A stretch of DNA of 48,335 bases from a virus (taxonomy: Duplodnaviria > Heunggongvirae > Uroviricota > Caudoviricetes). The notes beneath the pieces are model-generated. The model did not search any database. It saw only the letters and a program-made list of their open reading frames with translations, and was not told where the DNA came from. The position numbers and the translations under genes are program-made. The stretch is taken from IMG/VR virus record IMGVR_UViG_3300000292_000047; one strand, written 5' to 3'. Positions 1,009 to 26,430 of this stretch are shown here, piece by piece; the first letter of the stretch is position 1; each line of letters starts with the position of its first letter.

Positions 1009-1084
1009 TGGTGGCCCCTACCGGATTTGAACCGATGACCGTGCGATTATGAGTCGCCTGCTCTAACCACTAAGCTAAGGGGCC
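1009..1084 (-). tRNA. tRNA with CAT anticodon (Met or Ile2), CCA encoded
   Basis: Minus-strand reading GGCCCCT..CTCATAA..GGTTCAAATCC..AGGGGCCACCA; 7-bp acceptor stem, T-arm ATCGG/CCGGT, anticodon loop CTCATAA. Confidence 0.8.
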
Positions 1085-3327: not shown

Positions 3328-3741
3328 TCACTTCCCTTTCCCCTGAAGCATGGCGGCGCGGCAGGCATTCCAGCCTGTAGCGTATGCAGCCGCTTTGCTG
3401 CTGCCTTCAACTGGCGCATCCTGCCAATACATTTCTTCCGGCACTACCGGCGCTGGCAAGGCAGCGTGATAGTAGAGTGGCATAGTTTTGTACAGTGGTT
3501 CGCCAGGACTTCCGTCAACCTGATTCCATTCTTCAACCCAGGCATCAACAACCGCTTTGCTGGTTGATACATGTTCTTCTGAATCTACATTTTGTCCTGA
3601 TATACAGAACATAACTGCCTCTGCTTCCAGCGATGCCAGAGCAATTTCATAAGCCCGACGCTCAATATTGTCTCGGACGTCCAGGCTGCCTATGCGCTCT
3701 TTGATTTCTTTAATCAGTTCTTTGTCGGTAAAAGTAGTCAT
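3328..3741 (-). CDS. Hypothetical protein, paralogous family member
   Basis: 137 aa; MTTFTDKELI N-terminus, IALASLEAEAV motif, Pro-rich C-terminal region similar to 4017-4466. Confidence 0.5.
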   Translation of the reverse strand: MTTFTDKELIKEIKERIGSLDVRDNIERRAYEIALASLEAEAVMFCISGQNVDSEEHVSTSKAVVDAWVEEWNQVDGSPGEPLYKTMPLYYHAALPAPVVPEEMYWQDAPVEGSSKAAAYATGWNACRAAMLQGKGK

Positions 3742-3751
3742 GTGTTAGTCC

Positions 3752-4015
3752 TTATCCTGCTGTGCTTTCAACTGATGAGGGGAACAAAATCTTTTCATCA
3801 AACCCTGCATTCATATCATGGACAGCAACACACCAATCCATTGACGAACGATTATCAAGAGCCTCCATGATTTCATCCATGCGGCGCAGGTCATACAGGT
3901 AAATGCTTTTATCGCCAATGGTGTAAAAACCAATTTTTTTCGGTGATGGGCAGCGATCAAGAACGTCCTGTAATTCGTTCAACCATGCCCGTTCTTTTTT
4001 TGTTAAAGTTGCCAT
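3752..4015 (-). CDS. Hypothetical protein (shares MATLTKKE N-terminal motif)
   Basis: 87 aa ORF; start context gccatatcactctcctttga shared with neighbours. Confidence 0.45.
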   Translation of the reverse strand: MATLTKKERAWLNELQDVLDRCPSPKKIGFYTIGDKSIYLYDLRRMDEIMEALDNRSSMDWCVAVHDMNAGFDEKILFPSSVESTAG

Positions 4016-4016
4016 A

Positions 4017-4466
4017 TCACTCTCCTTTGATGCGAATGTTTACAGCCTGACAAGCCTCTTCGAGAACCCAGTCAACAGCGTCTTTCCATGCTCCGGTTTC
4101 GACTGGCGGATTTTCACGCTTAACCTGTTCATAGAAGCGCACTGCTTTAATCAATCCTTCTGGTATCAGTGGCACAGGCGGGGGAGTGAATAACGCCTGA
4201 ATTTCATAGCTCGGCCTGTCGTTGCAATCCTCTTTTGTCGGTACATATTTCCAGTCACCAACCCACGGCTCCCCCTGAGAGTCCGTAACGCCTTTTTTCA
4301 CGTAGCGATATCGCCACGCGACTGGCTCTGCTTCCAACGATGCCAGTGCGATACGAAACACATTGGCAAGCAGACTGCTTGAAGATTGGTTATCGTGCGC
4401 CGGGTCGCTCAGGAAGCCTGTGATGAATGATTTAATCTCCGCACGTTCTTTGGTAATAGTGGTCAT
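4017..4466 (-). CDS. Hypothetical protein, paralogous family member
   Basis: 149 aa; MTTITKERAEI, IALASLEAEPVAW motifs. Confidence 0.5.
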   Translation of the reverse strand: MTTITKERAEIKSFITGFLSDPAHDNQSSSSLLANVFRIALASLEAEPVAWRYRYVKKGVTDSQGEPWVGDWKYVPTKEDCNDRPSYEIQALFTPPPVPLIPEGLIKAVRFYEQVKRENPPVETGAWKDAVDWVLEEACQAVNIRIKGE

Positions 4467-4672
4467 TTATTAATCCTCAAAACTTTATGCCCGGGCGCAA
4501 AAGCACGCGTTTTGTCTTTGCTTATTCGCCAGCCATCCTTGCGCGCCTCTTTTGCACAGCCTGCCCATGACGTACCGATATACTCACCGAAGTCTGGCGA
4601 CTGATATTTACCATTTGTACACTGACGACAATCACAGTAGAGATGCATGGTGTAACTTGCGGCAACAGCCAT
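4463..4672 (-). CDS. Small Cys-rich hypothetical protein
   Basis: ATG at 4670-4672 with AGGAGA SD; 69 aa, HLYCDCRQC...AGC pattern. Confidence 0.4.
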   Translation of the reverse strand: MAVAASYTMHLYCDCRQCTNGKYQSPDFGEYIGTSWAGCAKEARKDGWRISKDKTRAFAPGHKVLRINK

Positions 4673-4673
4673 A

Positions 4674-4865
4674 TCACTCTCCTTTAGTACGCAAGTGGTT
4701 TTTCCAGCGGTTTTGCGCCGCGCTGCGCTTATCTTTGACTCCCTCTCTGGCAATTCCAGAAAATGAAAACAACACCACACGGCGATTGCTAACTCTCAAC
4801 CACTGGCTGGGGTAGCAAAGTCTGTATACACGGGAAATAAGCATCTTTGCTTTACGGTTTTTCAT
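4674..4865 (-). CDS. Small basic hypothetical protein
   Basis: ATG at 4863-4865 with GGGGG SD; stop forms TGATATG junction with next gene. Confidence 0.3.
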   Translation of the reverse strand: MKNRKAKMLISRVYRLCYPSQWLRVSNRRVVLFSFSGIAREGVKDKRSAAQNRWKNHLRTKGE

Positions 4866-5101
4866 CGTTTGCCCCCTGCTTTTCTGCCCTTAACACCATG
4901 CGAGAACCATCATCCAGCTCCCAATTGATTTCACCGCCTTCTGCCATGACAAGATGCCAAACGAGTTGTGCGGCCTCGTTGGTTACATCACAACCGCGAT
5001 CATTGCCTACACGGCGTTTTGTTCCGTCACCTAAATCGCGCATTTTGGCCAACACGATGGTTTTTGATAGCGGTGAAAAACCAAGCTGTAGCCGTGCGGA
5101 A

Positions 5102-5731
5102 TTACTCACTGGTTGCCCCCTGAATACGTTTAAACTCAATTACCCATACCCACGGGTTAGATAGCCAGTTCTCTTGCCCGTAAATACCGCGCCAGATATC
5201 ACCAAAGCCAACGCGATAAACAGCTTCCGGCGGTGTAATCTTGTACGTCGCCGGAGATGCGCCTTCCGCTTTAGCATCTGCCTCGCTCATGTCATGCAGC
5301 CGTTCCACACGCACGTCGGTAATTTCCAGCAAAATACGTGAAGCCCAGCGCGGCATGTGAATCGACGGGGTCCAGCCCTCAGCTGGCTTGCTACTATCTG
5401 AGTAATCAGCCTTGTAATCACACAGTTCAGAAGCCAGAGAGACACCATCTTTGATTTCCTGAATGACATCGTTATCCAGCCAAAAAGCGTTGAATGTTTC
5501 ACGGACCCATATGCGATCACCAACGTTACCGAACGGGCATAAACCATGTTCCGGTGCATCCATAACGTGGGTATAGACACCATTGCGTTTCTTTGTCGGT
5601 TTACGGATAACCAGGCAGTTATCGGCCCTGACATTTTTTACAGGTCGACGAGTCTGCGTCTTCCTGCCTTCGAGGATGGCCCTGACCATCGCATCATTAA
5701 AAATCATGCCGCGCTCTTTCATCTTGCTCAC
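5102..5731 (-). CDS. Hypothetical protein, ASCH-like (start uncertain: GTG 5731 / ATG 5722 / ATG 5707)
   Basis: MIFNDAMVRAILEGRKTQTRR and GDRIWVRETF motifs recalled from ASCH-domain proteins. Confidence 0.45.
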   Translation of the reverse strand: MSKMKERGMIFNDAMVRAILEGRKTQTRRPVKNVRADNCLVIRKPTKKRNGVYTHVMDAPEHGLCPFGNVGDRIWVRETFNAFWLDNDVIQEIKDGVSLASELCDYKADYSDSSKPAEGWTPSIHMPRWASRILLEITDVRVERLHDMSEADAKAEGASPATYKITPPEAVYRVGFGDIWRGIYGQENWLSNPWVWVIEFKRIQGATSE

Positions 5732-6093
5732 TTCAACTCCTCCCGACGACGTTCCTGAAGCTCTAGCATTGCGGCTCGGAAATCCTGCCACCATTCCTCA
5801 TCGGCTACTGGGGTGTTCCGCTCCAGCACCTTGTCCGCATCGGCGATCAGGTTTGCCAGACTCTTGTCTGAAATCTTCGTTACCGGAGTCGTTGGTTGCT
5901 CAACCTGCCCGATAGGTTTTATCGTGCTCAAAAGGAGGCGACGGCGGGAAAGTGGTGCCCCACAACGACGGCCATCTTCCTTGCGATATGTTTCTTTCGG
6001 ACCAACACACCAGGTTGTCGGCGTCTCGCGCAACTTCACTTTTTTCTCACCATCATTGGTAATGATTATTCCGGTATGTGTTTTGATGCTCAT
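5728..6093 (-). CDS. Hypothetical protein
   Basis: 121 aa; ATG 6091-6093; ATGA overlap with upstream gene. Confidence 0.45.
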   Translation of the reverse strand: MSIKTHTGIIITNDGEKKVKLRETPTTWCVGPKETYRKEDGRRCGAPLSRRRLLLSTIKPIGQVEQPTTPVTKISDKSLANLIADADKVLERNTPVADEEWWQDFRAAMLELQERRREELK

Positions 6094-6371
6094 GCCACAG
6101 CCCCTCTCAACGGCTTAACTTTGGCTAATAAGGTGTTAAACAACATGGAGTTAGGATTCATGCCAAATGGCAATTCCGGTTTAGCGGAGTAGTACAGGCA
6201 ACCATTTATTTTCCTGGTTGTTATCTGTCCTTCGGCAACCATGCTTCTCAGTCTGCAACGCATAGAGTTCTGCGACACACCAATGTGCTCCGCGATTACG
6301 TCCACTTTTGAACATGGGTGATCGGTCAGGAAATTAATCACATCTTGGGGGTTAATAATTTTGCGTTTCAT
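6090..6371 (-). CDS. Putative winged-helix DNA-binding protein
   Basis: 93 aa from ATG 6369-6371; HTH-like segment VDVIAEHIGVSQNSMRCRLRSMVAEGQI. Confidence 0.4.
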   Translation of the reverse strand: MKRKIINPQDVINFLTDHPCSKVDVIAEHIGVSQNSMRCRLRSMVAEGQITTRKINGCLYYSAKPELPFGMNPNSMLFNTLLAKVKPLRGAVA

Positions 6372-6416
6372 TGTCGAGGCGTCCTTATACATTTATATAA
6401 ATATATAATTCTATAT

Positions 6417-6438
6417 ACGGCGGGAGACATCCCGCCGT
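6417..6438 (-). terminator. Hairpin downstream of 6449-7516 gene (candidate terminator)
   Basis: acggcggga-gaca-tcccgccgt, 9-bp stem, followed on minus strand by AT-rich tract. Confidence 0.45.
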
Positions 6439-6448
6439 AGGCTTACTG

Positions 6449-7516
6449 TCAGGCTTTCAATAGCGATTCTTTCAGATATCGGGCATCAGCCAGGGCGTTT
6501 GGCGTAATCTTGCGAACCCATGCATTACGGGTTGGACTCCACTTAAAGGCGCGTGATTTAAGCAGCGAACGAATGTTTGCCTCTGGTTTGCCAGGGAAAT
6601 AAAACAGGATGCGGTTATCCTCTGGATCTATCTCCATAGAAAAGCCGTCGTATTCTTCGCGCTGTGCTCCTGTTACAGACTTGACCGATTCAAGCTCCTT
6701 AATACGGCTCTGTAGTCGTTTGATTTCGGCGTTATTGTTGCTCAGTGCGTATGAAGGGAATCCGATGCGCCCACAGAAATCTCCGGCCAGTAACTCTTTG
6801 GCTTCGCTTTCTGTAAACCTGAGATCGATTAATGCAGAAAGCTGCTGTATTTGGTCTTTTTTGTATTTGCGAATGGCCTTATTTGCGGCCTTCATTTTGA
6901 CGTGTGACTTCATGCAGCCTTGCAGCTTACGAAGCAACTTAAATAGCGCATCAGGATCATCAGACGAAATTCCATTACGACCAACACCTGCGGCTTTGCT
7001 CTCGTAGTGTGATGCTTTACTTTCGCATTCAACAAACGCTTTTCTGAATAACGCATCAGCTTTAGACAAACGGCGGCGATGGCCTTTCGCGCTATAATGG
7101 TCAACTAAAATCGGCTGGCCTAACGGGATCACATCCAACAGGTCATGCGCTCGCTTATGCGCTACCGCACCTTCTTTTCTGGCTTTTTCTGCACGAGCAA
7201 TATATCGGGCAAGACGCGCGTTCTGGCGTTCCTGATAGGTGTTTACGTAATCATCTCCGCGCTGCTGCTGTTCAAGCCATGCTTTGCGCAGATCTTCTGT
7301 TACGTCCACCAGCTCCGCAGGGATACAACCAGTTTGGGCTTCATAAGAGTAACCATCCTCATAGATACGCCCATCGTCTTCAACAAAGAAAAAGGTTTCG
7401 TGCTCATCGCTTTTGACCATACGACCATTAACATGGCGTAATAGGTAGCCAGTATCAGTGCTTAACAGGCTGTTAGGGTTGTTGATCCAGTCAGAAATAA
7501 TTACTTGTTTATTCAT
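6449..7516 (-). CDS. Conserved hypothetical protein driven by leader copy B (possibly DUF3560-like)
   Basis: 355 aa from ATG 7514-7516 (MNKQVIISDW) immediately after leader SD ccggagaaatctg; family assignment from memory only. Confidence 0.55.
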   Translation of the reverse strand: MNKQVIISDWINNPNSLLSTDTGYLLRHVNGRMVKSDEHETFFFVEDDGRIYEDGYSYEAQTGCIPAELVDVTEDLRKAWLEQQQRGDDYVNTYQERQNARLARYIARAEKARKEGAVAHKRAHDLLDVIPLGQPILVDHYSAKGHRRRLSKADALFRKAFVECESKASHYESKAAGVGRNGISSDDPDALFKLLRKLQGCMKSHVKMKAANKAIRKYKKDQIQQLSALIDLRFTESEAKELLAGDFCGRIGFPSYALSNNNAEIKRLQSRIKELESVKSVTGAQREEYDGFSMEIDPEDNRILFYFPGKPEANIRSLLKSRAFKWSPTRNAWVRKITPNALADARYLKESLLKA

Positions 7517-12650: not shown

Positions 12651-12674
12651 TAAAAAAGGCCCCCGAAGGGGCCT
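12651..12674. terminator. Hairpin terminator, usable on minus strand (bidirectional candidate)
   Basis: aggcccc-cgaa-ggggcct perfect stem; A-run on plus gives U-run on minus. Confidence 0.6.
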
Positions 12675-12679
12675 AATCG

Positions 12680-12802
12680 CTACTTGCTGCTAATGTTTAT
12701 CGTCACATTCAGAGCGTTATCAGTAATCTTCCAACCCTCCCCATGTGGCGTAAACAAAGCCCCAGTAACAACGATAAAAATACACATACAGTATTTTTTC
12801 AT
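12680..12802 (-). CDS. Small hydrophobic peptide (40 aa), candidate type I toxin-like or exported peptide
   Basis: MKKYCMCIFIVVTGALFTPHGEGWKITDNALNVTINISSK; ATG inside track ORF 12680-12862; terminator immediately downstream. Confidence 0.3.
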   Translation of the reverse strand: MKKYCMCIFIVVTGALFTPHGEGWKITDNALNVTINISSK

Positions 12803-13200
12803 TGTATGGCCCTTACAGGCCGTTTCACGGCATCCCCACCGACGAAAACAACGCGAGAGCAAGCACGGCTGCTTGTGCTTGCATGTACGGCAACGGAGAA
12901 TCCTCCCCTAAAGTCGGTGCCCGGGTGCGAATCGGCGGGAAGGTCCACAGGTATTTTACGATTATTTTAAGATTAGTAATAGGAAAGAAATTAAACGAAA
13001 AAACTCGTTTATTTTCACAAAATCAGTAACCTACCCACAATCTGTGAGTTTGCAGGCACAACAAGAATCACAATTTTTTGAAGCATAATAGTGGACTATT
13101 ATTACCTTTTGGGTAAAATTAACTTGCTGCTTGTGCTTGCGTGGTTGTTTATACAACGACGTTATGCTGAAAGGACCGCGAATCCGATCAGCACGAAAGA

Positions 13201-13227
13201 ACCGTCCTCAATAGGGCGGTTTTTTTG
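13201..13227 (+). terminator. Intrinsic terminator (plus)
   Basis: accgtcc-tcaata-gggcggt then T7. Confidence 0.6.
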
Positions 13228-13309
13228 TTTCTGCCTACCAATAAACCCACGCTATGTGGTTGTCTCTGTTAAAATCCCGCCGTATTGACATGAATGCGCC
13301 ATTGGTGGA

Positions 13310-13392
13310 CACTTTCCGAGCCGTAGCAAAATCTACGGTCGGGATTGGAACCCCGTAGACACAATGGCGCATACCGCGTTAGCGGTTTTTTT
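13310..13392 (+). ncRNA. Candidate small structured RNA ending at intrinsic terminator, upstream of antirepressor operon
   Basis: TTGACA at 13285-13290; hairpins ccgtag/ctacgg; terminator accgc-gtta-gcggt + T7 (13373-13392); no ORF. Confidence 0.3.
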
Positions 13393-13558
13393 ATGCGTAA
13401 AGCACTGCTACACCCAAATTATGGTGGGGCGTGCGGGGGAGTCGTAAGACTCGCCGGTTCGTCATTGTGTCCGGTAGTTCCAACCCTGCACGTCTCACCA
13501 CCCAATGATTGGAACCTGACGGTGGTGAGTATCCTTAACCTTTAAGGGAATCATCACA

Positions 13559-18999: not shown

Positions 19000-19260
19000 C
19001 AGGCAAAGCCTGCGTAAGTTAAATAAAGAAAGTCTTAATAAAAGAAAGTGATTTTGCATTTATTTGTTTAGTGCATCTATTATAAAAAACCATTTGCATA
19101 TACATATCAGAACTGTGGATAACTTTATTAGCCGATGCCTGTAAAGGCGATATTTTTGCTGTGTTCAGGTTTAGAGAAAATTAATTTAGATTGTTTTTTG
19201 AACAGATATTTTATTGCGACGTAGATAATCCTCCGGTAAAACCGGATTCATCATTCAGGT
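19000..19260. promoter_or_regulatory. Candidate replication origin downstream of repA (AT-rich, DnaA box)
   Basis: Perfect DnaA box TTATCCACA on minus strand at 19114-19122; AT-rich flanks. Confidence 0.5.
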
Positions 19261-19263
19261 GGG

Positions 19264-20112
19264 TTAATGTTGGAGTGATTTCCAGGTCTTTCTTAACCTG
19301 TTATAACGCTGCTCAACGAGGGATCGTAAATATGCAAGGTCAGCACCAGGATACATGCCATCAGCAAATTCCTGACTAACCTCTCTGGTGATTTGATGAC
19401 GAAGTTCGGCCTCTCCCTTTTCCCGAACAAGACGCGCAGCTCTCTCCGCTGCTTTCTGTTTTGCCTTTATCTCTCTGGCCGTCTTCCTCTGACGCCATAC
19501 ATTCTCCATCTGCTCCTGAATAACAATACGCTTATAATCAGCCTCCGTTATCGCTTTTTTAAGCCGTTCGCTATTCTTCGCATTGAAGTAATTAAGTTTC
19601 TGGCTAACCGCACGTCTCCATGCTTGTTCAGTAATACCAACGGTTTCCAGCAGTTGATCACGAATCTCTATTTTCGCTGGCCAATACTGTTTATTCACCC
19701 GATCCCAGCGACGTTCATAATCAATAAAACCTAACGCTTTCAGTTGCGACAACGCCCTTGTACAGCGCGTTATAGACTTGTTCCCAGCTTCGGATACGGT
19801 AGACAGGCCGCAAAAATCAGCCAACGCCTCAGCACTAGCCAGAACCCGCTTAGAAATGATGTTTACATGGTGCAAAATCGCAGCGATCACAGCATTAATC
19901 GCCCGACGACGATGCTCGTTTATCCGGCGCTTCCGCTCTGACGGTTGATTAACGTAGAACGCAACCTCACACGTAAGATCACGCCCATTAATGCGCTGTA
20001 AAGCATCAGATAACACCAGCGGCAGCTTGTGCGTATGGTGCTTTGGAGGCTGGAACTCCGGCGACAAATTACAAACGTAAGCTGAACGTAGAGACGGCAT
20101 TGGTCTATCCAT
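19264..20112 (-). CDS. repA: IncFII-type (RepFIIA-like) replication initiator RepA; in-frame upstream ATG at 20244 possible
   Basis: RRRAINAVI and GLSTVSEAGNKSITRCTRALSQLKALGFIDYE align by eye with R100 RepA1 (RRRAIDALL, GLATESAAGKLSITRATRALTFLSELGLITYQ); ATG 20110-20112. Confidence 0.7.
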   Translation of the reverse strand: MDRPMPSLRSAYVCNLSPEFQPPKHHTHKLPLVLSDALQRINGRDLTCEVAFYVNQPSERKRRINEHRRRAINAVIAAILHHVNIISKRVLASAEALADFCGLSTVSEAGNKSITRCTRALSQLKALGFIDYERRWDRVNKQYWPAKIEIRDQLLETVGITEQAWRRAVSQKLNYFNAKNSERLKKAITEADYKRIVIQEQMENVWRQRKTAREIKAKQKAAERAARLVREKGEAELRHQITREVSQEFADGMYPGADLAYLRSLVEQRYNRLRKTWKSLQH

Positions 20113-20156
20113 ATGTTCGCTCTTGCGTCCACGGAAAACCAACGTATAATGGGAGT

Positions 20157-20237
20157 TGTCGAGGCGCCCATGGATTGTTGTTGTTGGTTTTCCGTGGATG
20201 TCGCAAGAAGCCCGCAGATTTATCTGCGGGCTTTTTG
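20157..20237 (+). ncRNA. CopA-like antisense RNA countertranscript to repA leader
   Basis: TTGCGT-N16-TATAAT at 20123-20150; strong terminator gcccgcaga-ttta-tctgcgggc + T5 at 20210-20236. Confidence 0.55.
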
Positions 20238-20710
20238 TTTCCATATCTGGTCACTTTCCAACCAGACACCCACAATCATAACCACGTTACGTGGTTTTAA
20301 GAGAACTCTACCACAACACTTTCGGTCATGCACGAAGTCTCTCACTGATCGAACGATAATCCACCAGTAAAAGGATCTAAATTGGATCTCGTTTTGCGAG
20401 CATCATACTACTGGCCTAACTCCAGTCAATGATTCCCAGCCAGAAACCTGCGGTAAACTCATCGTTCAGCAATATGCTGTCCGGCTTCAAAGATAAGGTG
20501 ACATCATCCCTTAACAGCGCGGCCAGTTCAGTTAAAGGGCTGTTCTGATTTAATGCTGGCCACTCATACCTGGTAATAAGTGGTCAGTCTTAACACTCAC
20601 CATTTGATTGCACCCGTGTTGACGATTTGTTACTGGATATCAGACACGCTGGATAGCCAGTAGAAACATACCATTAAAATTATTACAATAATTGGTCACA
20701 TGATTATCTT

Positions 20711-21274
20711 ATGCTGAATAATAAAGATATGAATATTAATGAACTTAAAGACTGTATTCACTATGAAGTAATCGGTAGCGAGCGTCCTTTCTCCTGGCGA
20801 AAGGCAATTGTTCGCGCAATAAAACATAGAAGGGTTCGTTATTTATTTTGGTGGCGCATAGCCAAATACCTTTTTGATAAAGGCGGATACTGTCGGAAGA
20901 TTGCGGGAAAAATAGAACGTTTCATTCTTGATAAATATAATGTAACAGTCCCTTTAACTGTAAATATAGGGAAAGGCTTTGATATTTCTTATCTCAACAG
21001 TGTTGTTATCGGTCACAAAGTAACAATCGGTGAAAATTGTTCAATTAAGCCCGGAGTAACTATTGGACTTCGCGGGGAATTTAATGATATGGATATTGTT
21101 ATAGGGCATAATGTGACCATTGGTTGTAATGCCACCATTCTTGGTGGCAAAGTGCGTATAGGAAACAATGTCACAATAGGTGCTCATGCATTGGTATTGC
21201 ATGATATTCCTGATGATTCAACATTCATCACTAAATTTCAGTCTGAAGTTATCTGCTCGTCCTCCCGAACATAA
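20711..21274 (+). CDS. Hexapeptide-repeat (left-handed beta-helix) acetyltransferase, moron
   Basis: 187 aa; repeated [LIV]-G-x-x-x-x hexapeptides; AT-rich relative to neighbours; 3' end overlaps convergent Tfa gene. Confidence 0.7.
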
Positions 21275-21855
21275 CCCTGATTCATCAGCTCTGGCCATAC
21301 GATATCCGGAGCTGTACTGGTGTCAATTCTACTCACTAATACTCTGTATTTTCTCCAGGAATCCAGTTGTGAATTTTCCTCGTTTGTTGCTATTTCAAGA
21401 TTAACTGCATCCTGCAGAATTGCGATGTTATCTGTTGCTTCCTGGATCAACCTTGCCTTTTTCTCTTCCGCTTCCCGTATCCGAAACAGTTTTTCTGCTT
21501 CCTCATCATTCACCCAGGATACGCCGTCCCACTTCTGATACTCCCCTGCTGGCGACAACCAGGTGACATTCTCTGGTAGCGGTCCGAGTTCAGAAATAAA
21601 CAATGCGTCCCCCGACGCCACGTCATAGACCGTTTTACCACGATGGTCTTCAACAATATTCCACGATTCATTTTCACTGTTAAAAACTGCCACAAAGCCA
21701 GCAGGAATTTCCGGTGGGGCGATATCTGTAGAATTAGCTGGCAGCCCTGTATGAGGTGGAATATATGCGTCACCTTCACCAATAAACTCATTAGTTCCGG
21801 CCAGCAGGTTATAAATTTTTACGGTACGTGATTGTTCACTCATTCTGAATGCCAT
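21238..21855 (-). CDS. Tail fibre assembly protein (Tfa)
   Basis: 205 aa; [42 protein letters not shown] typical enterobacterial Tfa N-terminus. Confidence 0.8.
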
Positions 21856-24701
21856 TATGCAAGCCTCACAATATAATTAAATGCGATGTTTTTAACGGTG
21901 TTTTCCGCGTTACCAGCAGCGTTAACGGTGATGGTGTGTCCATGTGAACCAATCGCAACAGAGTGCGTATGAGCGCCAATACCAACAGTGTGTGCATGTG
22001 CCCCAGCACTTGTAGCGGTACCTGATACTGAGTGGGTATGTGCGCCAGAAGAAGGCACAGTTCCATTCCCCACCACCGTGCCACTTGATGAACCATCCAG
22101 CCAGTCGAAATTCATACCGCCACTGTTTGGTCTCCTTAATGGAACGGTATGAGTATGTGCGCCAGCACTATTTGCAGTACCAGATACATTATGGGTATGT
22201 GCACCTGTGTTATTCGTTGATTTAGTACCGTAATCAAACGACGATGTGGTTTTCGTACCCAAATCCGTATTGGATGCGCTGGCACTGTGGGTGTGCGATT
22301 TAATGCCATCCTGTTCCTGAGACAATACGGCCCGACCACTGGCGGGTTTGCCCTTGATTGTCCAGCCGCGCATATCTGGAATAACACCAGAAGGATAGGC
22401 AATAGCCAGTTTCGGATATGCTGCCTTATCAAACGTCTGCCCCTGCATGATTGCATAACCTGCAGGTGGCGTATCTGATGGCCACGGCAGCGGAACACCT
22501 GGCGGAAACGCTTCAATATTTGCCGAGCCGTCAAATTTTACGCCGTTAATTGTCCTTGCCGTTTTCAGCTTTGTTGCTGTAGCAGCATTGCCGGATAGTT
22601 CGCCTGAAAGACCACCGCTGAATGTCTGTTTCGCCATCCATGTCTGAGCTTCGTCGATAATTGGCACACGTCTTGTCGTGATCGTGCGGCTTCCCGGATT
22701 TCCTGAAATGCGAACCATAAAAAAGCGGTAGTTGGCTTTACTTACAGTGCTGCGCCATACATGCATTGAGCGTCCCGAACCAGAATCATCACTCGGACCG
22801 ACTGAGATGTTTATCAGGTTGCCATCAATGACGCCCCAGTCCATACCGTCGGGAATATTGGTCATGTTATCAAGCCGAACGGTTATCAGACTGCCCGGCA
22901 CAAAATCGTAGGTCTGCCAGTCCAGGCTGGTGAGCTTTGCCACAGCACCGCCGATACCCAGATTCAGGGGAAGTGAATACGAGGTGTAGACTTCCCGCCA
23001 TTCGCTCCATGAGCTGCCGGTAAAGACGCGCTCAAAGGTGCGGCCTTTAAGGGTTGTACCTGTTCCGGCAGTTGTATAACGCTGCCATACATTAACACCA
23101 TCAAACCGCCTCAACACTTCCAGAATGCCGAGTACAGTCACGCCGTTTCCGTCCAGTACTGGACCGTTGGTCGCTTTACCTGTAACGCTGTAAATACCTG
23201 GTGAGGTTACATCATTCAAATCACCTTCGTAATAACGACTCTCTGACTGATGACCGACTCTTAACCACGGTTCCCACTGCGGATTTGATGCATCCCAGCT
23301 TGCCGCAAGACAGCGGACATACATATTTCCACGGCGAGTGGTATAACGTTGCGTTCTTCCATAATTTCCGCCTTCGAGGATCTCAAGCATCCCCTGAGCA
23401 AAGCCGCCTTCCTCTGGATAATTGCGTTCATATGAAGCTATAGCTGAGCTACTGTTACGCCATAAACCAAGATGCTCGGCGGCTCCAAGCGTATTCAGGT
23501 CTATAGTCGTACTCAAAGGGCGGGTAGCAGATTGAGTGTGACGCCATACGCCCCACGGACCATCAGTGCCATTCCACTTATTGGCGAGTTTACGCATGTA
23601 TACATTGCCGTCTCTCGTGGTAAAGCGTTGCGTACCTGCAAAATTGCCGGCAGCAAAAACCTCAAGCACACCGACAGCATTATCTTCCGGGAAATTTTTC
23701 TCCAGTGTTGCGTTGGTGGATGTTGCTTTAGACCAGATACCTGAATAAGCCTTAACAGGACCAAACGTATTCAGATCAGCATCAAGCGGCATTTCGCCAT
23801 TGTTTTTCATAAACGTCAGGCTGGTAACGCCAACATTGTCCAGAAAAGCTGATTTATCCTGGATATCTGCACCGTTCTGATTTTTCGCCAGACGTGAATT
23901 TGCGTTGTCATTTGCTGCCTTGACCGCTTTTGGCGTTGCCGCCTGCGTTTCAGACGTACTGTTAGTGGCACTACTGAGCTGAACTATCCCTTTTTGTGCC
24001 GTGGTGGCATTCTGGGCGGTATATTTTCCGTCAGCCAGGTCATATGCAGCCTTAACAGCCTTAGGCGTCGCTGCGAGCTTTTCAGACGTGCTATTGGTGG
24101 CATTACTGAGTTGAACAATGCCTTTTGATGTTAAAGTTGCATCAGGATGATTACGTGATTGCTCATGTTTTACAATAGCTTGCTTAAGCCGCTTTGCTGA
24201 AACAGCCAGGGAATCATCTGTACCTGCATCAATTTCTTGTTCATTAGCAAATCTTGCTACTCCAACAACAGTTTCGGTTGCGGGAGGGTTAATAAACTCA
24301 ACATCACCAAATGTAATGTTTTTAGTATCAAGATTTTTAATTGCTATATCACTTGATATTAAAGCAATTGTAGAAGATGCTTTATTTATTATTACTTGTT
24401 CTTGCGAGTATACAGCAAACAATGTTCCTTTATTTGTATACAACCCTATTGTATGGACAACATACTCATCTTTACTATCATCCTTCGCAGTTACATGAAT
24501 GGTATCAGGAGAAACGACTTTGCCTCCTATTGTGGTAAGTCGCTTTATTTCATCTGTTATTTTTGTTTGTGTGGTTGATGTGGCATAATATCTACTACCT
24601 AAACCAACAGAAACGATCTCAACTTTATTTGTTCCAGTCTTGTTGGCATTAACCAGCGCCTTACGCCCGGCGTCAGTCATCGTAAATAATAATTTACTCA
24701 C
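21855..24701 (-). CDS. Tail fibre protein (P2 H-like N-terminal/central region, His-rich C-terminal repeats)
   Basis: 948 aa, GTG start with AAGGA SD; [28 protein letters not shown] repeats like P2 gpH; C-terminal GAHTH(S/N/T)V repeats. Confidence 0.85.
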
Positions 24702-24731
24702 GCTTAATTCCTTGGATTAACAAATCGCAAA

Positions 24732-25313
24732 TTAGCACTCACCAATTAATCGTACATAAGACACAGGCTGGAAAGCACCGACAATACCAACACCACCTGA
24801 AACATTGGTTGCTTGCGAAAATGTAAATAGTGTTCTTGCCGACTTTGCACTCTTGATACTTCTTAACGTATCCTCCAACATCTCTTTCGAAGGAACAGCA
24901 CCATCAAAAGAGTTAATCGAAGCAACAATTGAGGCTGTATATGGTTCGCCAGGTGGTGATGTTTCAAACCATTCTGTTATGTTTACCTCTCCACCCAAGC
25001 TATTTACTACATCTTCAACCGCTGCCCTTGTACCCTTTATTCGCTTTGTTCGTATTATTGATTTAAAAACAGAACGCTTTAACGATACAGGCCAACTATC
25101 CCTCCATGTATCAGCATTCCATTGCCAAGCTAAATGATCGAGAACAACTGAGTCCAGGTTATCAACAACGCTATATATTTCTGTCTTATATATTAAATTG
25201 TTAATTGCTTGTAGTTCATCATCAATAGCTTTCGACATAGCTATCACGTTGGGATCGCTAGCTAAGTTAGGAGGTAAAACATCCAACAAGCTAACATTAA
25301 AGATATCAGCCAT
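24732..25313 (-). CDS. Tail/baseplate protein, P2 gpI-like
   Basis: 193 aa, position between J-like gene and fibre; RTKRIKGTRAAVEDVV motif. Confidence 0.65.
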   Translation of the reverse strand: MADIFNVSLLDVLPPNLASDPNVIAMSKAIDDELQAINNLIYKTEIYSVVDNLDSVVLDHLAWQWNADTWRDSWPVSLKRSVFKSIIRTKRIKGTRAAVEDVVNSLGGEVNITEWFETSPPGEPYTASIVASINSFDGAVPSKEMLEDTLRSIKSAKSARTLFTFSQATNVSGGVGIVGAFQPVSYVRLIGEC

Positions 25314-26430
25314 CCTCTAACCCCGCATACTGGCAATTTATATTTCTCTCTCTGGCGACCTGTGTCTCTCCAACCACATTAAAAACAGGACTTGATATTT
25401 CTAATCTTTTAGCCCCAGCATTTTTTAAACGTTGAATAATTTCATCTGGATTTATATCTCTTCCCATAACCGAACGTTGCCATTGTTTATACTCATCAAT
25501 AGCTTTCTCAACCTCACTTTGAATTAAAGTTGTTCTGTTTTTGTCCGATGAGTTAATCCAGTATTTAATTATTATATCGTATTCAATGCTCTCTGGTTTC
25601 TTAACAAGAACTTTATCTGTGAATGGTCGAATATTAGTTGCAGAGAGAACGCTATTTATCTGCTCTAATAGTTCATCAGAAGGTATATCTCCGTTCTCTA
25701 ACAAAGAACGGATTTCTACAATTCCGGGCGATGGTGTATATACATTCACATCTTTTATATTCTGATTGGCTGTTCTTGTCCAATATTTATAAGAATCCTC
25801 CGGCCCTGCTGTAGACAGTTTTTCCGGCGACAGTTTTATTCTTTCAGCATAATTATCATCTGACTCCGTATCAGCACCAGAATTAGATGTTGTTACATTC
25901 CTTACGCTGGAAACATACGGCAACGGAGTCACCAACTCATTTATTTGCCCTGGTAAAAAGCCATTCCCAGATAAACCAGGTATAACAGCATATCCTGAGA
26001 CTGTACCAACTGTTTTCCCAGCAGGTATTTCCAACAAAATATCTGTTTGGAAAATAACACCATTTCCAGTTGAAACTTGAGTGCCAGCAGGTATTGTATA
26101 TATCCCCGATAATTTTGTTGACAGATTAAACTCAAATGTAGTCAAGGCAGATTGAGCTTCCAGCCTAGGCGTATCCGTCAGATAGCCTATATGGTCGAGA
26201 TATTCACCTTCACCATATGTAAGAAGGTTTTGTTTTGCAGAAAAATCGATAGCTTTTCTTTGCTGTATAATAATCTCACACAATGATAAGATGAATAATC
26301 TACGTGGATCAGCAGGTGCTAATGTTTCACCTGTTATACTCTCAAAAGCCCTGATTGAACGAGTTGTTATATCAGTCGGGTTAGAATCTGCGAAAGTAAT
26401 ATCTGGCAAACCACCACGCGGCAACGTCAT
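25306..26430 (-). CDS. Baseplate J-like protein
   Basis: 374 aa; size, order W-J-I-H. Confidence 0.7.
   Translation of the reverse strand: MTLPRGGLPDITFADSNPTDITTRSIRAFESITGETLAPADPRRLFILSLCEIIIQQRKAIDFSAKQNLLTYGEGEYLDHIGYLTDTPRLEAQSALTTFEFNLSTKLSGIYTIPAGTQVSTGNGVIFQTDILLEIPAGKTVGTVSGYAVIPGLSGNGFLPGQINELVTPLPYVSSVRNVTTSNSGADTESDDNYAERIKLSPEKLSTAGPEDSYKYWTRTANQNIKDVNVYTPSPGIVEIRSLLENGDIPSDELLEQINSVLSATNIRPFTDKVLVKKPESIEYDIIIKYWINSSDKNRTTLIQSEVEKAIDEYKQWQRSVMGRDINPDEIIQRLKNAGAKRLEISSPVFNVVGETQVARERNINCQYAGLEDG

Follow-up and report, generated by a model that had tools for sequence, protein, structure and literature searches.

A modular tail fibre in an Escherichia coli phage-plasmid, with a distal block that very probably came from a P2-like prophage and replaced an invertible switch

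Introduction

Since the early 1990s, textbooks have described mosaic exchange among the tail fibre genes P2 H, Mu S, P1 S, lambda Stf and T4 gp37. The P2 gpH-type fibres of Peduoviridae carry Phage_fiber_2 repeats and lie in the gene order gpJ-gpI-fibre-tfa. The Mu S/S' (G segment) and P1 S (C segment) loci are switchable and are laid out as Sc-Sv, tfa, inverted tfa' and Sv', and a serine invertase. In T4, the tip of gp37 is a needle in which seven iron ions are coordinated by seven HxH motifs, and the residues needed for LPS/OmpC binding (933-953) fall in its apex region (PMC6957217). The R1/R2 pyocin fibres (6CL5, 6CL6, 6CU2) consist of two knobs, a distal shaft and a lectin-like foot. In R-type pyocins, Knob2 varies more than any other region and has been proposed to set the killing spectrum (PMC6116203).

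Here we analyse a tail fibre gene in a window of 48,335 nt, the whole stretch of DNA that was examined. It is carried by an IncFII-RepA phage-plasmid of E. coli, ~48 kb in size, that has a P2-type baseplate. The locus shares the Phage_fiber_2 repeats and the gene order of the Peduoviridae fibres, and the fibre ends in a needle that aligns with T4 gp37 and the C-terminus of lambda Stf. All modules of the fibre belong to known families; the value of the case is that of a cleanly resolved example, not of a discovery.

Results

The fibre gene is intact and modular

The fibre gene is one uninterrupted reading frame that begins with GTG and encodes 948 aa; the sequence AAGGA stands ~7 nt before the start. 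The annotation of ON470591 includes this CDS, and the protein matches the PHROG 295 tail fibre family (E 6e-222). A search of PLSDB found at least 80% of the gene covered in 19 plasmids; the full-length gene is 98.7-99.9% identical in 18 independently sequenced complete plasmids and 94.5% identical in one further plasmid. The gene is thus intact but ordinary, assembled from the following well-known interchangeable modules.

21855..24701, minus strand: tail fibre gene, 948 aa, GTG start, intact (open reading frame list, PLSDB, PHROG 295)
24162..24701, minus strand: N-terminal domain, aa 1-180, AT-rich, presumed to attach to the baseplate (GC, GC3, lineage identity)
23880..24137, minus strand: two Phage_fiber_2 repeats of P2 gpH / Mu S type, aa 189-274 (Pfam, 88-nt DNA repeat, Mu S structures)
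23907..23998, minus strand: left crossover zone (gene nt 704-795), which falls on the second copy of the 88-nt repeat (homology limits)
23517..23795, minus strand: predicted knob domain U1, aa 303-395
23226..23516, minus strand: predicted knob domain U2, aa 396-492, lineage-specific duplicate of U1 (alignments; missing from Atlantibacter / Citrobacter homologues)
22977..23225, minus strand: predicted knob domain U3, aa 493-575, diverged copy (hhalign, Smith-Waterman)
22632..22976, minus strand: domain U4, aa 576-690, knob-like in predicted fold only
22512..22631, minus strand: linker, aa 691-730, with the conserved [19 protein letters not shown] motif; tip-exchange junction (limit of NC_070906 homology)
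21858..22556, minus strand: T4 gp37-type collar and predicted iron-stapled needle, aa 716-948 (2XGF, Pfam Collar)
22044..22145, minus strand: hypervariable needle apex, aa 853-886, presumed receptor contact (low gp37 identity)

The N-terminal region belongs to the plasmid lineage and is followed by two fibre repeats

The N-terminal ~180 aa are specific to the phage-plasmid lineage, and residues 1-180 are 92-93% identical to the fibres of sister plasmids (85% for L008). The P2-like fibres L003 and L004 score 194-195 bits against the Pfam model PF12571 (Phage_tail_fib), whereas our fibre stays below the 23-bit cut-off, with 16.7 bits for the complete protein and 20.4 bits when aa 1-188 are scored separately. 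Judged by these scores, the N-terminus is at best a distant relative. The fibre departs from P2-like fibres in its lineage-specific N-terminal ~120-180 aa and also in having two fibre repeats where those have one.

An initial reading made from the sequence only had noted a P2 gpH-type motif, KGIVQLS(N/S)[16 protein letters not shown], occurring twice, and it is found at aa 193-219 and aa 237-263. The corresponding Pfam model, Phage_fiber_2 (PF03406), matches two stretches with 138.6 bits (E 4.4e-41), well above its cut-off of 22, the best stretch being aa 233-274, and aa 213-296 match the Mu S structures 5YVQ and 8JU3. An ungapped diagonal scan of the protein against itself gives a score of 113 at offset 44 (maximum of 43 in 20 shuffles), and at the DNA level the repeats appear as an 88-nt direct repeat, 80% identical, at 23907-23994 and 24039-24126. 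Given its sequence, canonical P2 gpH was set aside as an improbable relative of the middle part of the fibre. The matching records that bear the name 'Peduovirus P2' (NC_070906, 31.5 kb) have a 919-aa fibre, with which gene nt 704-2156 are 93% identical.

The same reading had held that the gene changes from an AT-rich 5' end resembling the baseplate genes to a GC-richer 3' part resembling tfa. This shift is real, and composition is not uniform along the gene. Gene nt 1-540 have a GC content of 0.363 and a GC3 of 0.228, close to the baseplate genes (0.376-0.393), while the remainder of the gene lies at 0.49-0.51 and tfa at 0.456. The maximum-likelihood change point falls at gene nt 600 (0.362 versus 0.500, log-likelihood gain of 18.4). 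However, the latest crossover, at nt 704-795, is 100-250 nt downstream of the compositional change at gene nt ~540-600; the latter marks the start of the repeat region shared with P2, Mu and P1-type fibres and not the newest joint.

The middle of the fibre carries predicted knob domains

Three tandem units of ~65 aa had been proposed for the middle of the gene at ~23020-23800. Three units are indeed present there (aa 303-575, window 22977-23795), but their period is 91-93 aa, and the third copy shows little sequence similarity to the other two. U1 and U2 align with a Smith-Waterman score of 181 (z = 32.6, a score reached by 0 of 300 shuffles) and with an hhalign probability of 99.8% (E 2.6e-28), so that an internal repeat is recovered by formal alignment. 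U3 is more distant, both from U1 (Smith-Waterman z = 3.1, 3 of 300 shuffles; hhalign E 7e-6 over 75 columns) and from U2 (hhalign E 1e-4). It should be noted that self-BLASTP of the fibre returned no off-diagonal matches, and the diagonal scan and gapped alignments with shuffles were used instead. Likewise, Tandem Repeats Finder detected no DNA-level tandem array in the fibre gene because the knob copies are too diverged; the DNA repeats found are the dispersed direct repeats of 88 nt and 63 nt.

The isolated units U1-U4 had no match in Pfam-A or NCBIfam, libraries that appear to be without a knob model, and the knob assignment therefore rests on predicted structure. In the structure models, all of which are AF2 monomers, the units fit a pyocin-type knob, an antiparallel five- to six-stranded β-sheet of ~85-95 aa like Knob1 and Knob2 of the R1/R2 fibres, and NCBI names close homologues of the fibre 'pyocin knob domain-containing protein'. 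The models thus identify the repeat unit as a predicted knob domain of ~91-93 aa and add a fourth knob-like domain, U4, seen in the predicted fold only. The tandem arrangement fits internal duplication, with U1, U2 and U3 linked by hhalign and U4 related by fold only. U2 is a recent, lineage-specific duplicate of U1, missing from Atlantibacter and Citrobacter homologues (35-40% identical). Both near and remote homologues of the fibre are plentiful, and among those from E. coli the identity of the knobs varies independently (U1 45-84%, U2 61-89%, U3 46-98%). As modelled, the fibre would have four knob-like domains to the two of the R1/R2 pyocin fibres, and it has a gp37-type needle in place of their distal shaft and lectin-like foot. 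Other knob-domain receptor-binding proteins included in the comparison were phi11 gp45, phage K gp144 and T4 gp34.

The C-terminus is a T4 gp37-type needle with a divergent apex

The His-rich C-terminus, previously described as five or more repeats reminiscent of metal-binding fibre tips, contains seven HxH motifs at aa 803, 835, 849, 888, 902, 911 and 920, five of which read GAH(T/A)H. The likeness to metal-binding tips proved exact. The crystallised tip of T4 gp37 is homologous over its length to residues 716-948 of the fibre (2XGF; E 1.7e-82, 62% identity; gp37 800-1026, chain residues 16-242), and the seven motifs stand in register, one to one, with gp37 H883, H915, H929, H966, H980, H989 and H998. 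The shared collar is also recognised by Pfam (Collar, 40.2 bits, cut-off 24). A self-match at offset 53 (score of 102 in the diagonal scan) and a 63-nt direct repeat (21984-22046 and 22143-22205) occur in this part of the gene. However, the His motifs do not form a simple tandem array; the needle is a hairpin, and the motifs sit on its upward and downward arms, to either side of a hypervariable apex.

The apex (aa 853-886) is only 12% identical to gp37 933-964, and at 34 residues versus 32 it is 2 aa longer, whereas the flanking stem and collar are 69-94% identical and the last 17 residues of the fibre 94%. Given this divergence, the fibre may recognise a receptor other than the OmpC or LPS bound by T4. 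Two further differences from T4 concern the setting of the needle, which is carried here by a P2-type fibre and in T4 by the T-even distal half-fibre, and the chaperone, which is encoded here by a lambda-type tfa and in T4 by gp38. The homology with Peduovirus NC_070906 extends as far as gene nt 2156 (aa 719), a point within the GNAATATKL...FDG motif of the linker; beyond this point the proteins differ, and the NC_070906 fibre ends in a different, gp37_C-type tip. Conserved linkers thus serve as crossover points in these fibres, both at this motif and at the 88-nt Phage_fiber_2 repeat. The domain boundaries defined here are useful for host-range prediction and fibre engineering, with aa 853-886 as the first candidate for receptor specificity.

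The distal fibre belongs to a shared block with two mapped joints

Downstream of the fibre gene lie four further features.

21238..21855, minus strand: tfa, encoding a 205-aa tail fibre assembly chaperone, with a start that overlaps the stop of the fibre gene (Pfam Caudo_TAP)
20711..21274, plus strand: hexapeptide-repeat acetyltransferase gene, within the imported block (Pfam Hexapep)
20459..20545, plus strand: gpU remnant (P2 gpU-family tail gene, final 29 codons), marker of donor DNA
20429..20458, minus strand: remnant, last 10 codons and stop of a Gin/Cin-type invertase gene of the plasmid lineage

The position of tfa directly downstream of the fibre is the lambda arrangement and not that of T4 gp38. 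Tfa scores 136 bits against Caudo_TAP, and the first 398 nt of the gene are 85.5% identical to lambda tfa. The acetyltransferase gene converges on tfa with a 37-nt overlap; its product matches Pfam Hexapep, and its NCBIfam matches (EpsC, CysE and WcaB) are all below cut-off. This gene is co-linear with the fibre and tfa in P1-like and P2-like elements. Acetyltransferase gene, distal fibre and tfa form one block found in three unrelated backbones, the IncFII phage-plasmid, P1-like IncY plasmids (94.3% identical) and P2-like prophages, and the convergence on tfa and the 37-nt overlap recur in all three. What was imported exceeds the fibre part: tfa, the acetyltransferase gene and a fragment of gpU came with it.

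That the receptor-binding part was exchanged by recombination, as suspected earlier from composition, is borne out by mapped breakpoints and by the gene remnants at the right joint. Homology with the sister plasmids extends up to gene nt 795 (window 23907) and resumes at window 20457, and the P2-like element NZ_CP148288 is 94.7% identical from gene nt 704 (window 23998) to window 20458. Of the 59 plasmids with gpI and the 5' end of the fibre gene in common, only 19 share most of the fibre. At the right joint the two remnants abut at 20458/20459. The gpU remnant equals, in 28 of 29 aa, the C-terminus of a full-length 162-aa gene in the P2-like element L004, itself a PF06995 member at 133 bits, and at the chromosomal loci listed the same 96 nt fall within full-length genes annotated as 'phage tail protein'. 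The invertase remnant reads VYRRFLAGNH*, compared with LYRRFPAGNH* in the recombinase (Resolvase and HTH_7) of sister plasmids L006 and L007, and in NZ_AP022814 the region falls under a 'recombinase family protein' gene. In the same place, sister plasmids L006-L008 carry the fibre, tfa, inverted tfa' and Sv', a serine recombinase and repA, which matches the Mu and P1 layout exactly.

In contrast to the Mu G and P1 C loci, the fibre locus in the window is fixed. Inverted Sv'/tfa' reading frames are absent downstream, the invertase is represented by the 10-codon stub only, and the inverted repeats within 19000-25400 are all imperfect and at most 25 nt. A still-invertible fibre locus was therefore rejected, as the invertase, the inverted Sv'/tfa' and long inverted repeats are all absent.

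Discussion

Our current hypothesis, which we hold to be highly probable, is that the gene encodes the modular receptor-binding fibre of a temperate phage-plasmid and that its distal block came from a P2-like prophage and replaced an invertible switch. The product would be a trimeric tail fibre of a temperate myovirus kept as an IncFII-RepA plasmid. The N-terminal ~180 aa would dock the fibre to the P2-type baseplate, the two Phage_fiber_2 repeats would form the proximal shaft, and four bead-like knobs would follow, which, by analogy with R-pyocin and endosialidase knobs, may add secondary saccharide-type contacts. The C-terminal 230 aa would form the T4 gp37 / lambda Stf-type collar and needle, held by seven His-coordinated metal (iron) sites, with the hypervariable apex touching the primary receptor, an outer-membrane protein or LPS core, and with the lambda-type Tfa chaperoning trimerisation of the C-terminal part. 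The receptor, metal content, trimer state and Tfa dependence are proposed here from T4 gp37, lambda Stf/Tfa and R-pyocin fibres. As for its origin, the sequence indicates that a ~3.45-kb block, which begins in the second fibre repeat, takes in the knobs, needle, tfa and acetyltransferase gene, and closes with the 3' end of gpU, was copied from a P2-like prophage by a homologous crossover inside the conserved 88-nt repeat on the left and an illegitimate joint on the right. It replaced a Mu G / P1 C-type invertible host-range segment together with all but the last 10 invertase codons, and the plasmid therefore now makes one fixed fibre rather than two alternating ones. The lineage thus traded a switchable, invertase-driven two-fibre system for one fixed fibre from a chromosomal P2-like prophage, with the joints placed at base level.

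The direction of this transfer, as read from the sequences, depends on the two gene remnants. Had the block arisen in the phage-plasmid lineage and spread from there into P2-like prophages and P1-like plasmids, the 94-95% identity in all three backbones would look the same, so that identity alone gives no direction, and the already GC-rich repeat region (gene nt 541-795) is part of the lineage backbone. However, the window holds just the last 29 gpU codons, where P2-like elements have the full gene beside the acetyltransferase gene, and it keeps only the last 10 codons of an invertase gene that is intact in sister plasmids. In addition, the block has a GC content of 0.464 (0.497 for its fibre part), compared with 0.38-0.39 for the neighbouring baseplate genes. 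Transfer out of the phage-plasmid lineage is thus very unlikely, although a more complex multi-step history could yield the same end state. P1-like plasmids have the same block without the gpU remnant, so the P2-like element that was sampled may not be the immediate donor. The remnants downstream of the block and the loss of the invertase could also suggest a decaying, non-functional chimera or an assembly artefact, and the record vB_EcoM-613R2 represents a predicted prophage rather than an isolated virion, and is listed among such prophages in a preprint, the only literature found on this plasmid lineage. Against this stand 948 uninterrupted codons whose stop overlaps the tfa start, the conservation across the full length in complete plasmids, the retention of all seven metal-site motifs in a collar and stem close to T4 gp37, and the occurrence of the distal module, at a single place and with at least 80% coverage, in 174 of 5426 complete E. 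coli genomes. We regard decay or artefact as extremely unlikely.

Within the favoured reading of an imported, functional fibre, the apex would set specificity. Alternatively, the knobs could be the primary determinant, binding O-antigen or another polysaccharide, with the gp37-like needle acting mainly as a folding and trimerisation nucleus. The independent variation of the knobs, the recent duplication of U2 and the proposed role of pyocin Knob2 in the killing spectrum (PMC6116203) speak for this. However, the receptor-contacting residues of T4 map to the needle apex (PMC6957217), and the apex is the single most divergent stretch here, at 12% inside a frame of 69-94%. We therefore find a primary role for the knobs doubtful; apex and knobs may well act together, as proposed for pyocin fibres.

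Finally, the acetyltransferase could conceivably be a matched receptor-masking enzyme that O-acetylates the surface polysaccharide or LPS recognised by the same fibre. We give this idea a slim chance, and a literature search on fibre-linked acetyltransferases found nothing specific. If it were true, a lysogen with an O-acetylated receptor would exclude phages with the same fibre, and the fibre-tfa-acetyltransferase block would be a self-contained 'key plus lock-changer' host-range cassette.

The fibre gene and its element

The tail fibre gene is a single unbroken ORF of 948 codons with a GTG start, has AAGGA ∼7 nt 5′ of that start, and belongs to PHROG 295, tail fibre (E 6e-222). It is preceded by the P2-type baseplate genes gpD, gpV, gpW, gpJ, and gpI (Tail_P2_I, 95 bits) and followed by a Caudo_TAP tail-fibre-assembly gene, tfa, whose start overlaps the fibre stop. 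Because an IncFII RepA gene lies 1.6 kb beyond tfa and matching DNA is found in ∼47-50-kb non-mobilizable E. coli plasmids and in the predicted prophage vB_EcoM-613R2, the window is a phage-plasmid and 21855-24701 its tail fibre gene. The whole fibre gene is ∼99% identical (98.7-99.9%) in 18 plasmids and 94.5% identical in one further plasmid.

Features of the fibre locus (window coordinates)
20429-20458 (-), last 10 codons and stop of an invertase gene
20459-20545 (+), last 29 codons of a gpU-family tail gene
20711-21274 (+), gene for a 187-aa hexapeptide-repeat acetyltransferase
21238-21855 (-), tfa
21855-24701 (-), tail fibre gene

Probable replacement of an invertible host-range locus

The gpI gene and the fibre 5′ end are common to 59 plasmids at 94 to 100%, and most of the fibre is found in only 19. 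In three sister plasmids (L006-L008), the interval between gpI and repA holds a fibre gene, tfa, inverted tfa′ and Sv′, and a serine recombinase with Resolvase and HTH_7 domains. This arrangement is a Mu G/P1 C-type invertible locus with intact invertible fibre segments (L006 9454-11515, L007 9516-11641, and L008 8052-10217), and the recombinase sits directly upstream of repA. Within this plasmid lineage, the gpI-repA interval is a host-range hotspot. A third arrangement, two tail-protein genes without an invertase, was seen in L005 (NZ_CP103765).

Sister DNA (L006-L008) matches the window from the baseplate genes to 23907 (gene nt 795; L005 to nt 668), and homology resumes at 20457 (L005 at 20433) and continues through repA. 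Between gene nt 704 and window 20458, a P2-like element, NZ_CP148288, has a 94.7% match. Since sister homology stops and resumes at these positions and the P2-like match spans the gap, the variable block can be placed at 20458-23906 (∼3.45 kb). In P1-like IncY plasmids the match (94.3%) runs from gene nt 869 to window 20641, and in Peduovirus NC_070906 (93%) it is limited to gene nt 704-2156.

The left edge of the block falls inside the second copy of an 88-nt fibre repeat that both parents share, which indicates a homologous crossover. At the right edge lie two abutting stubs on opposite strands (20429-20545), which mark an illegitimate joint. The gpU stub is identical at 28 of 29 residues to the full-length protein of the P2-like element (162 aa, PF06995, 133 bits); in the listed chromosomal places, full-length "phage tail protein" genes cover the same 96 nt, and the gene order is tfa, acetyltransferase, gpU. 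The other stub is the end of a Gin/Cin-type invertase gene that is intact in the sisters. A search for long inverted repeats around the locus, as residual inversion sites, found none. On the most parsimonious reading, a P2-like prophage supplied the distal fibre together with tfa, the acetyltransferase gene, and the gpU stub, and this block took the place of the invertible segment along with almost the whole invertase gene. The sequence-only reading had suggested recombinational exchange of the receptor-binding part, and the mapped block and its stubs bear this out.

A third junction was found at aa 719, within a conserved linker, where NC_070906 homology stops and its fibre continues into a different tip. 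In the P1-like IncY plasmid NZ_CP083486 (L002), a 1181-aa fibre (3434-6979) carries the same knob-needle block, with an extra ATKL-type linker copy directly before it (aa 464-520, 60% to window aa 677-733). Within ∼5 kb downstream of that fibre, the annotation shows neither a cin invertase gene nor an alternative fibre set. This layout suggests a parallel replacement of the C segment in P1-like plasmids.

The acetyltransferase gene and tfa converge, with an overlap of 37 nt at the tfa 3′ end. The fibre-tfa-acetyltransferase block also occurs in P1-like IncY plasmids and P2-like prophages. The protein belongs to PHROG 2154, "unknown function," and its best NCBIfam matches (EpsC, CysE, WcaB, and NeuD) are all far under their cut-offs.

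N-terminal domain, composition, and repeats

Residues 1-180 are conserved only among the sister plasmids (92-93% aa identity; L008 85%). Whereas P2-like fibres score 194 bits on the P2 gpH N-terminal family, this region scores 16.7-20.4, below the cut-off of 23 bits. GC content is 0.363 (GC3 0.228) at gene nt 1-540 and 0.49-0.51 beyond, as compared to 0.376-0.393 in the baseplate genes and 0.456 in tfa, so the AT-rich 5′ end and GC-richer 3′ part noticed earlier are real. The best change point is nt 600 (log-likelihood gain 18.4), and the change (nt 540-600) marks where the repeat region in common with P2, Mu, and P1-type fibres begins. It sits upstream of the most recent crossover and is not the latest joint. 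A TTG-start ORF of 132 codons, possibly due to chance, lies in another frame within the gene (22136-22534 (-)), in GC-richer DNA.

The motif described as P2 gpH-type does occur twice (aa 193-219 and 237-263) and is the Pfam Phage_fiber_2 repeat, detected in two stretches (138.6 bits, cut-off 22). At offset 44, the protein matches itself with a score of 113 versus a maximum of 43 in shuffles, and the underlying 88-nt direct repeat (23907-23994 and 24039-24126) is 80% identical.

Knob-like middle domains

Three tandem units of ∼65 aa had been proposed for the middle of the fibre. The units exist where proposed (aa 303-575, window 22977-23795); their period, however, is 91-93 aa. The relationship of U1 (303-395) to U2 (396-492) is clear (Smith-Waterman z = 32.6, profile-profile E 2.6e-28). 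U3 (493-575) is a diverged copy (to U1, z = 3.1 and hhalign E 7e-6; to U2, hhalign E 1e-4) and keeps the landmarks DLN, G(V/I)LEV, QR(F/Y)TT, and W..W. Tandem Repeats Finder saw no tandem repeat at the DNA level in the gene.

U1-U4 had no match among Pfam and NCBIfam profiles. Close homologues are named "pyocin knob domain-containing protein" by NCBI, and relatives of the middle units match the catalogue of knob-domain relatives of R1/R2 pyocin fibres by Buth et al. (PMC6116203). An AlphaFold2 model of aa 290-700, built from 30 homologues (mean pLDDT 76; 80-90 inside domains), predicts a five- to six-strand pattern common to every unit. Distant homologues from Atlantibacter and Citrobacter (35-40% identical) have U1, U3, and U4 and lack U2, which is therefore a lineage-specific duplication of U1. 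The knob region is also shared, at 59% identity, with the distal fibre subunit of the T-even Shigella phage JK23.

C-terminal tip

Residues 716-948 align to the crystallised receptor-binding tip of T4 gp37 (2XGF, E 1.7e-82).

Identity of the fibre tip to T4 gp37
Tip overall, 62%
Collar, 76%
Two stem arms, 69% each
Apex, aa 853-886 (gp37 933-964), 12%
Last 17 residues, 94%

The His-rich end had been likened to metal-binding fibre tips, and all seven of its HxH motifs line up with gp37 H883, 915, 929, 966, 980, 989, and 998, which coordinate seven iron ions along the T4 needle (PMC6957217). The His "repeats" are therefore the two arms, ascending and descending, of a hairpin needle, and this accounts for a 63-nt DNA repeat with copies 159 nt apart. 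In T4, binding to LPS and OmpC requires gp37 residues 933-953, which are part of the apex (PMC6957217); because the two apices are unrelated, the receptor need not be that of T4. Over its first 398 nt, the adjacent tfa shares 85.5% identity with lambda tfa, and tip and tfa together are the lambda Stf/Tfa version of the gp37 tip.

Proposed architecture and relation to known fibres

In our working model, a homotrimer would dock on the P2-type baseplate by its lineage-specific N-terminus, the fibre repeats would form a thin proximal shaft, and four knob beads would stiffen the fibre. By analogy with pyocin Knob2, for which saccharide contact is proposed, and the K1F endosialidase beta-prism, for which it is shown (PMC6116203), the beads may touch surface saccharides as secondary contacts. 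The collar and iron-stapled needle would hold the hypervariable apex toward the primary receptor, and the C-terminal part would need Tfa to fold.

Every module belongs to an already described family, and the swapping of parts among P2 H, Mu S, P1 S, lambda Stf, and T4 gp37 has long been known. The distal module is common: of 5426 complete E. coli genomes, 174 have 80% or more of it in a single place, and 4001 have some portion of it. The fibre is an ordinary mosaic, and the sequence-only reading of it was correct. What we add is a base-level account of the loss of the invertible host-range switch from this phage-plasmid, a recent knob duplication, and a linked acetyltransferase.

Other features of the element

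A tRNA-Met gene (CAT anticodon) is located at 1009-1084 (-) (ARAGORN, Rfam). A cluster of Rfam gathering-level RNAs spans 12652-13505 and consists of ryfA (12652-12948 (-), 141.8 bits), the nearby isrK (13320-13392 (+)), and C4 antisense RNA (13417-13505 (+)). C4 is the antisense RNA of the immI immunity region in P1/P7, and its presence suggests that this P2-tailed phage-plasmid uses antisense control of immunity of the P1/P7 type.
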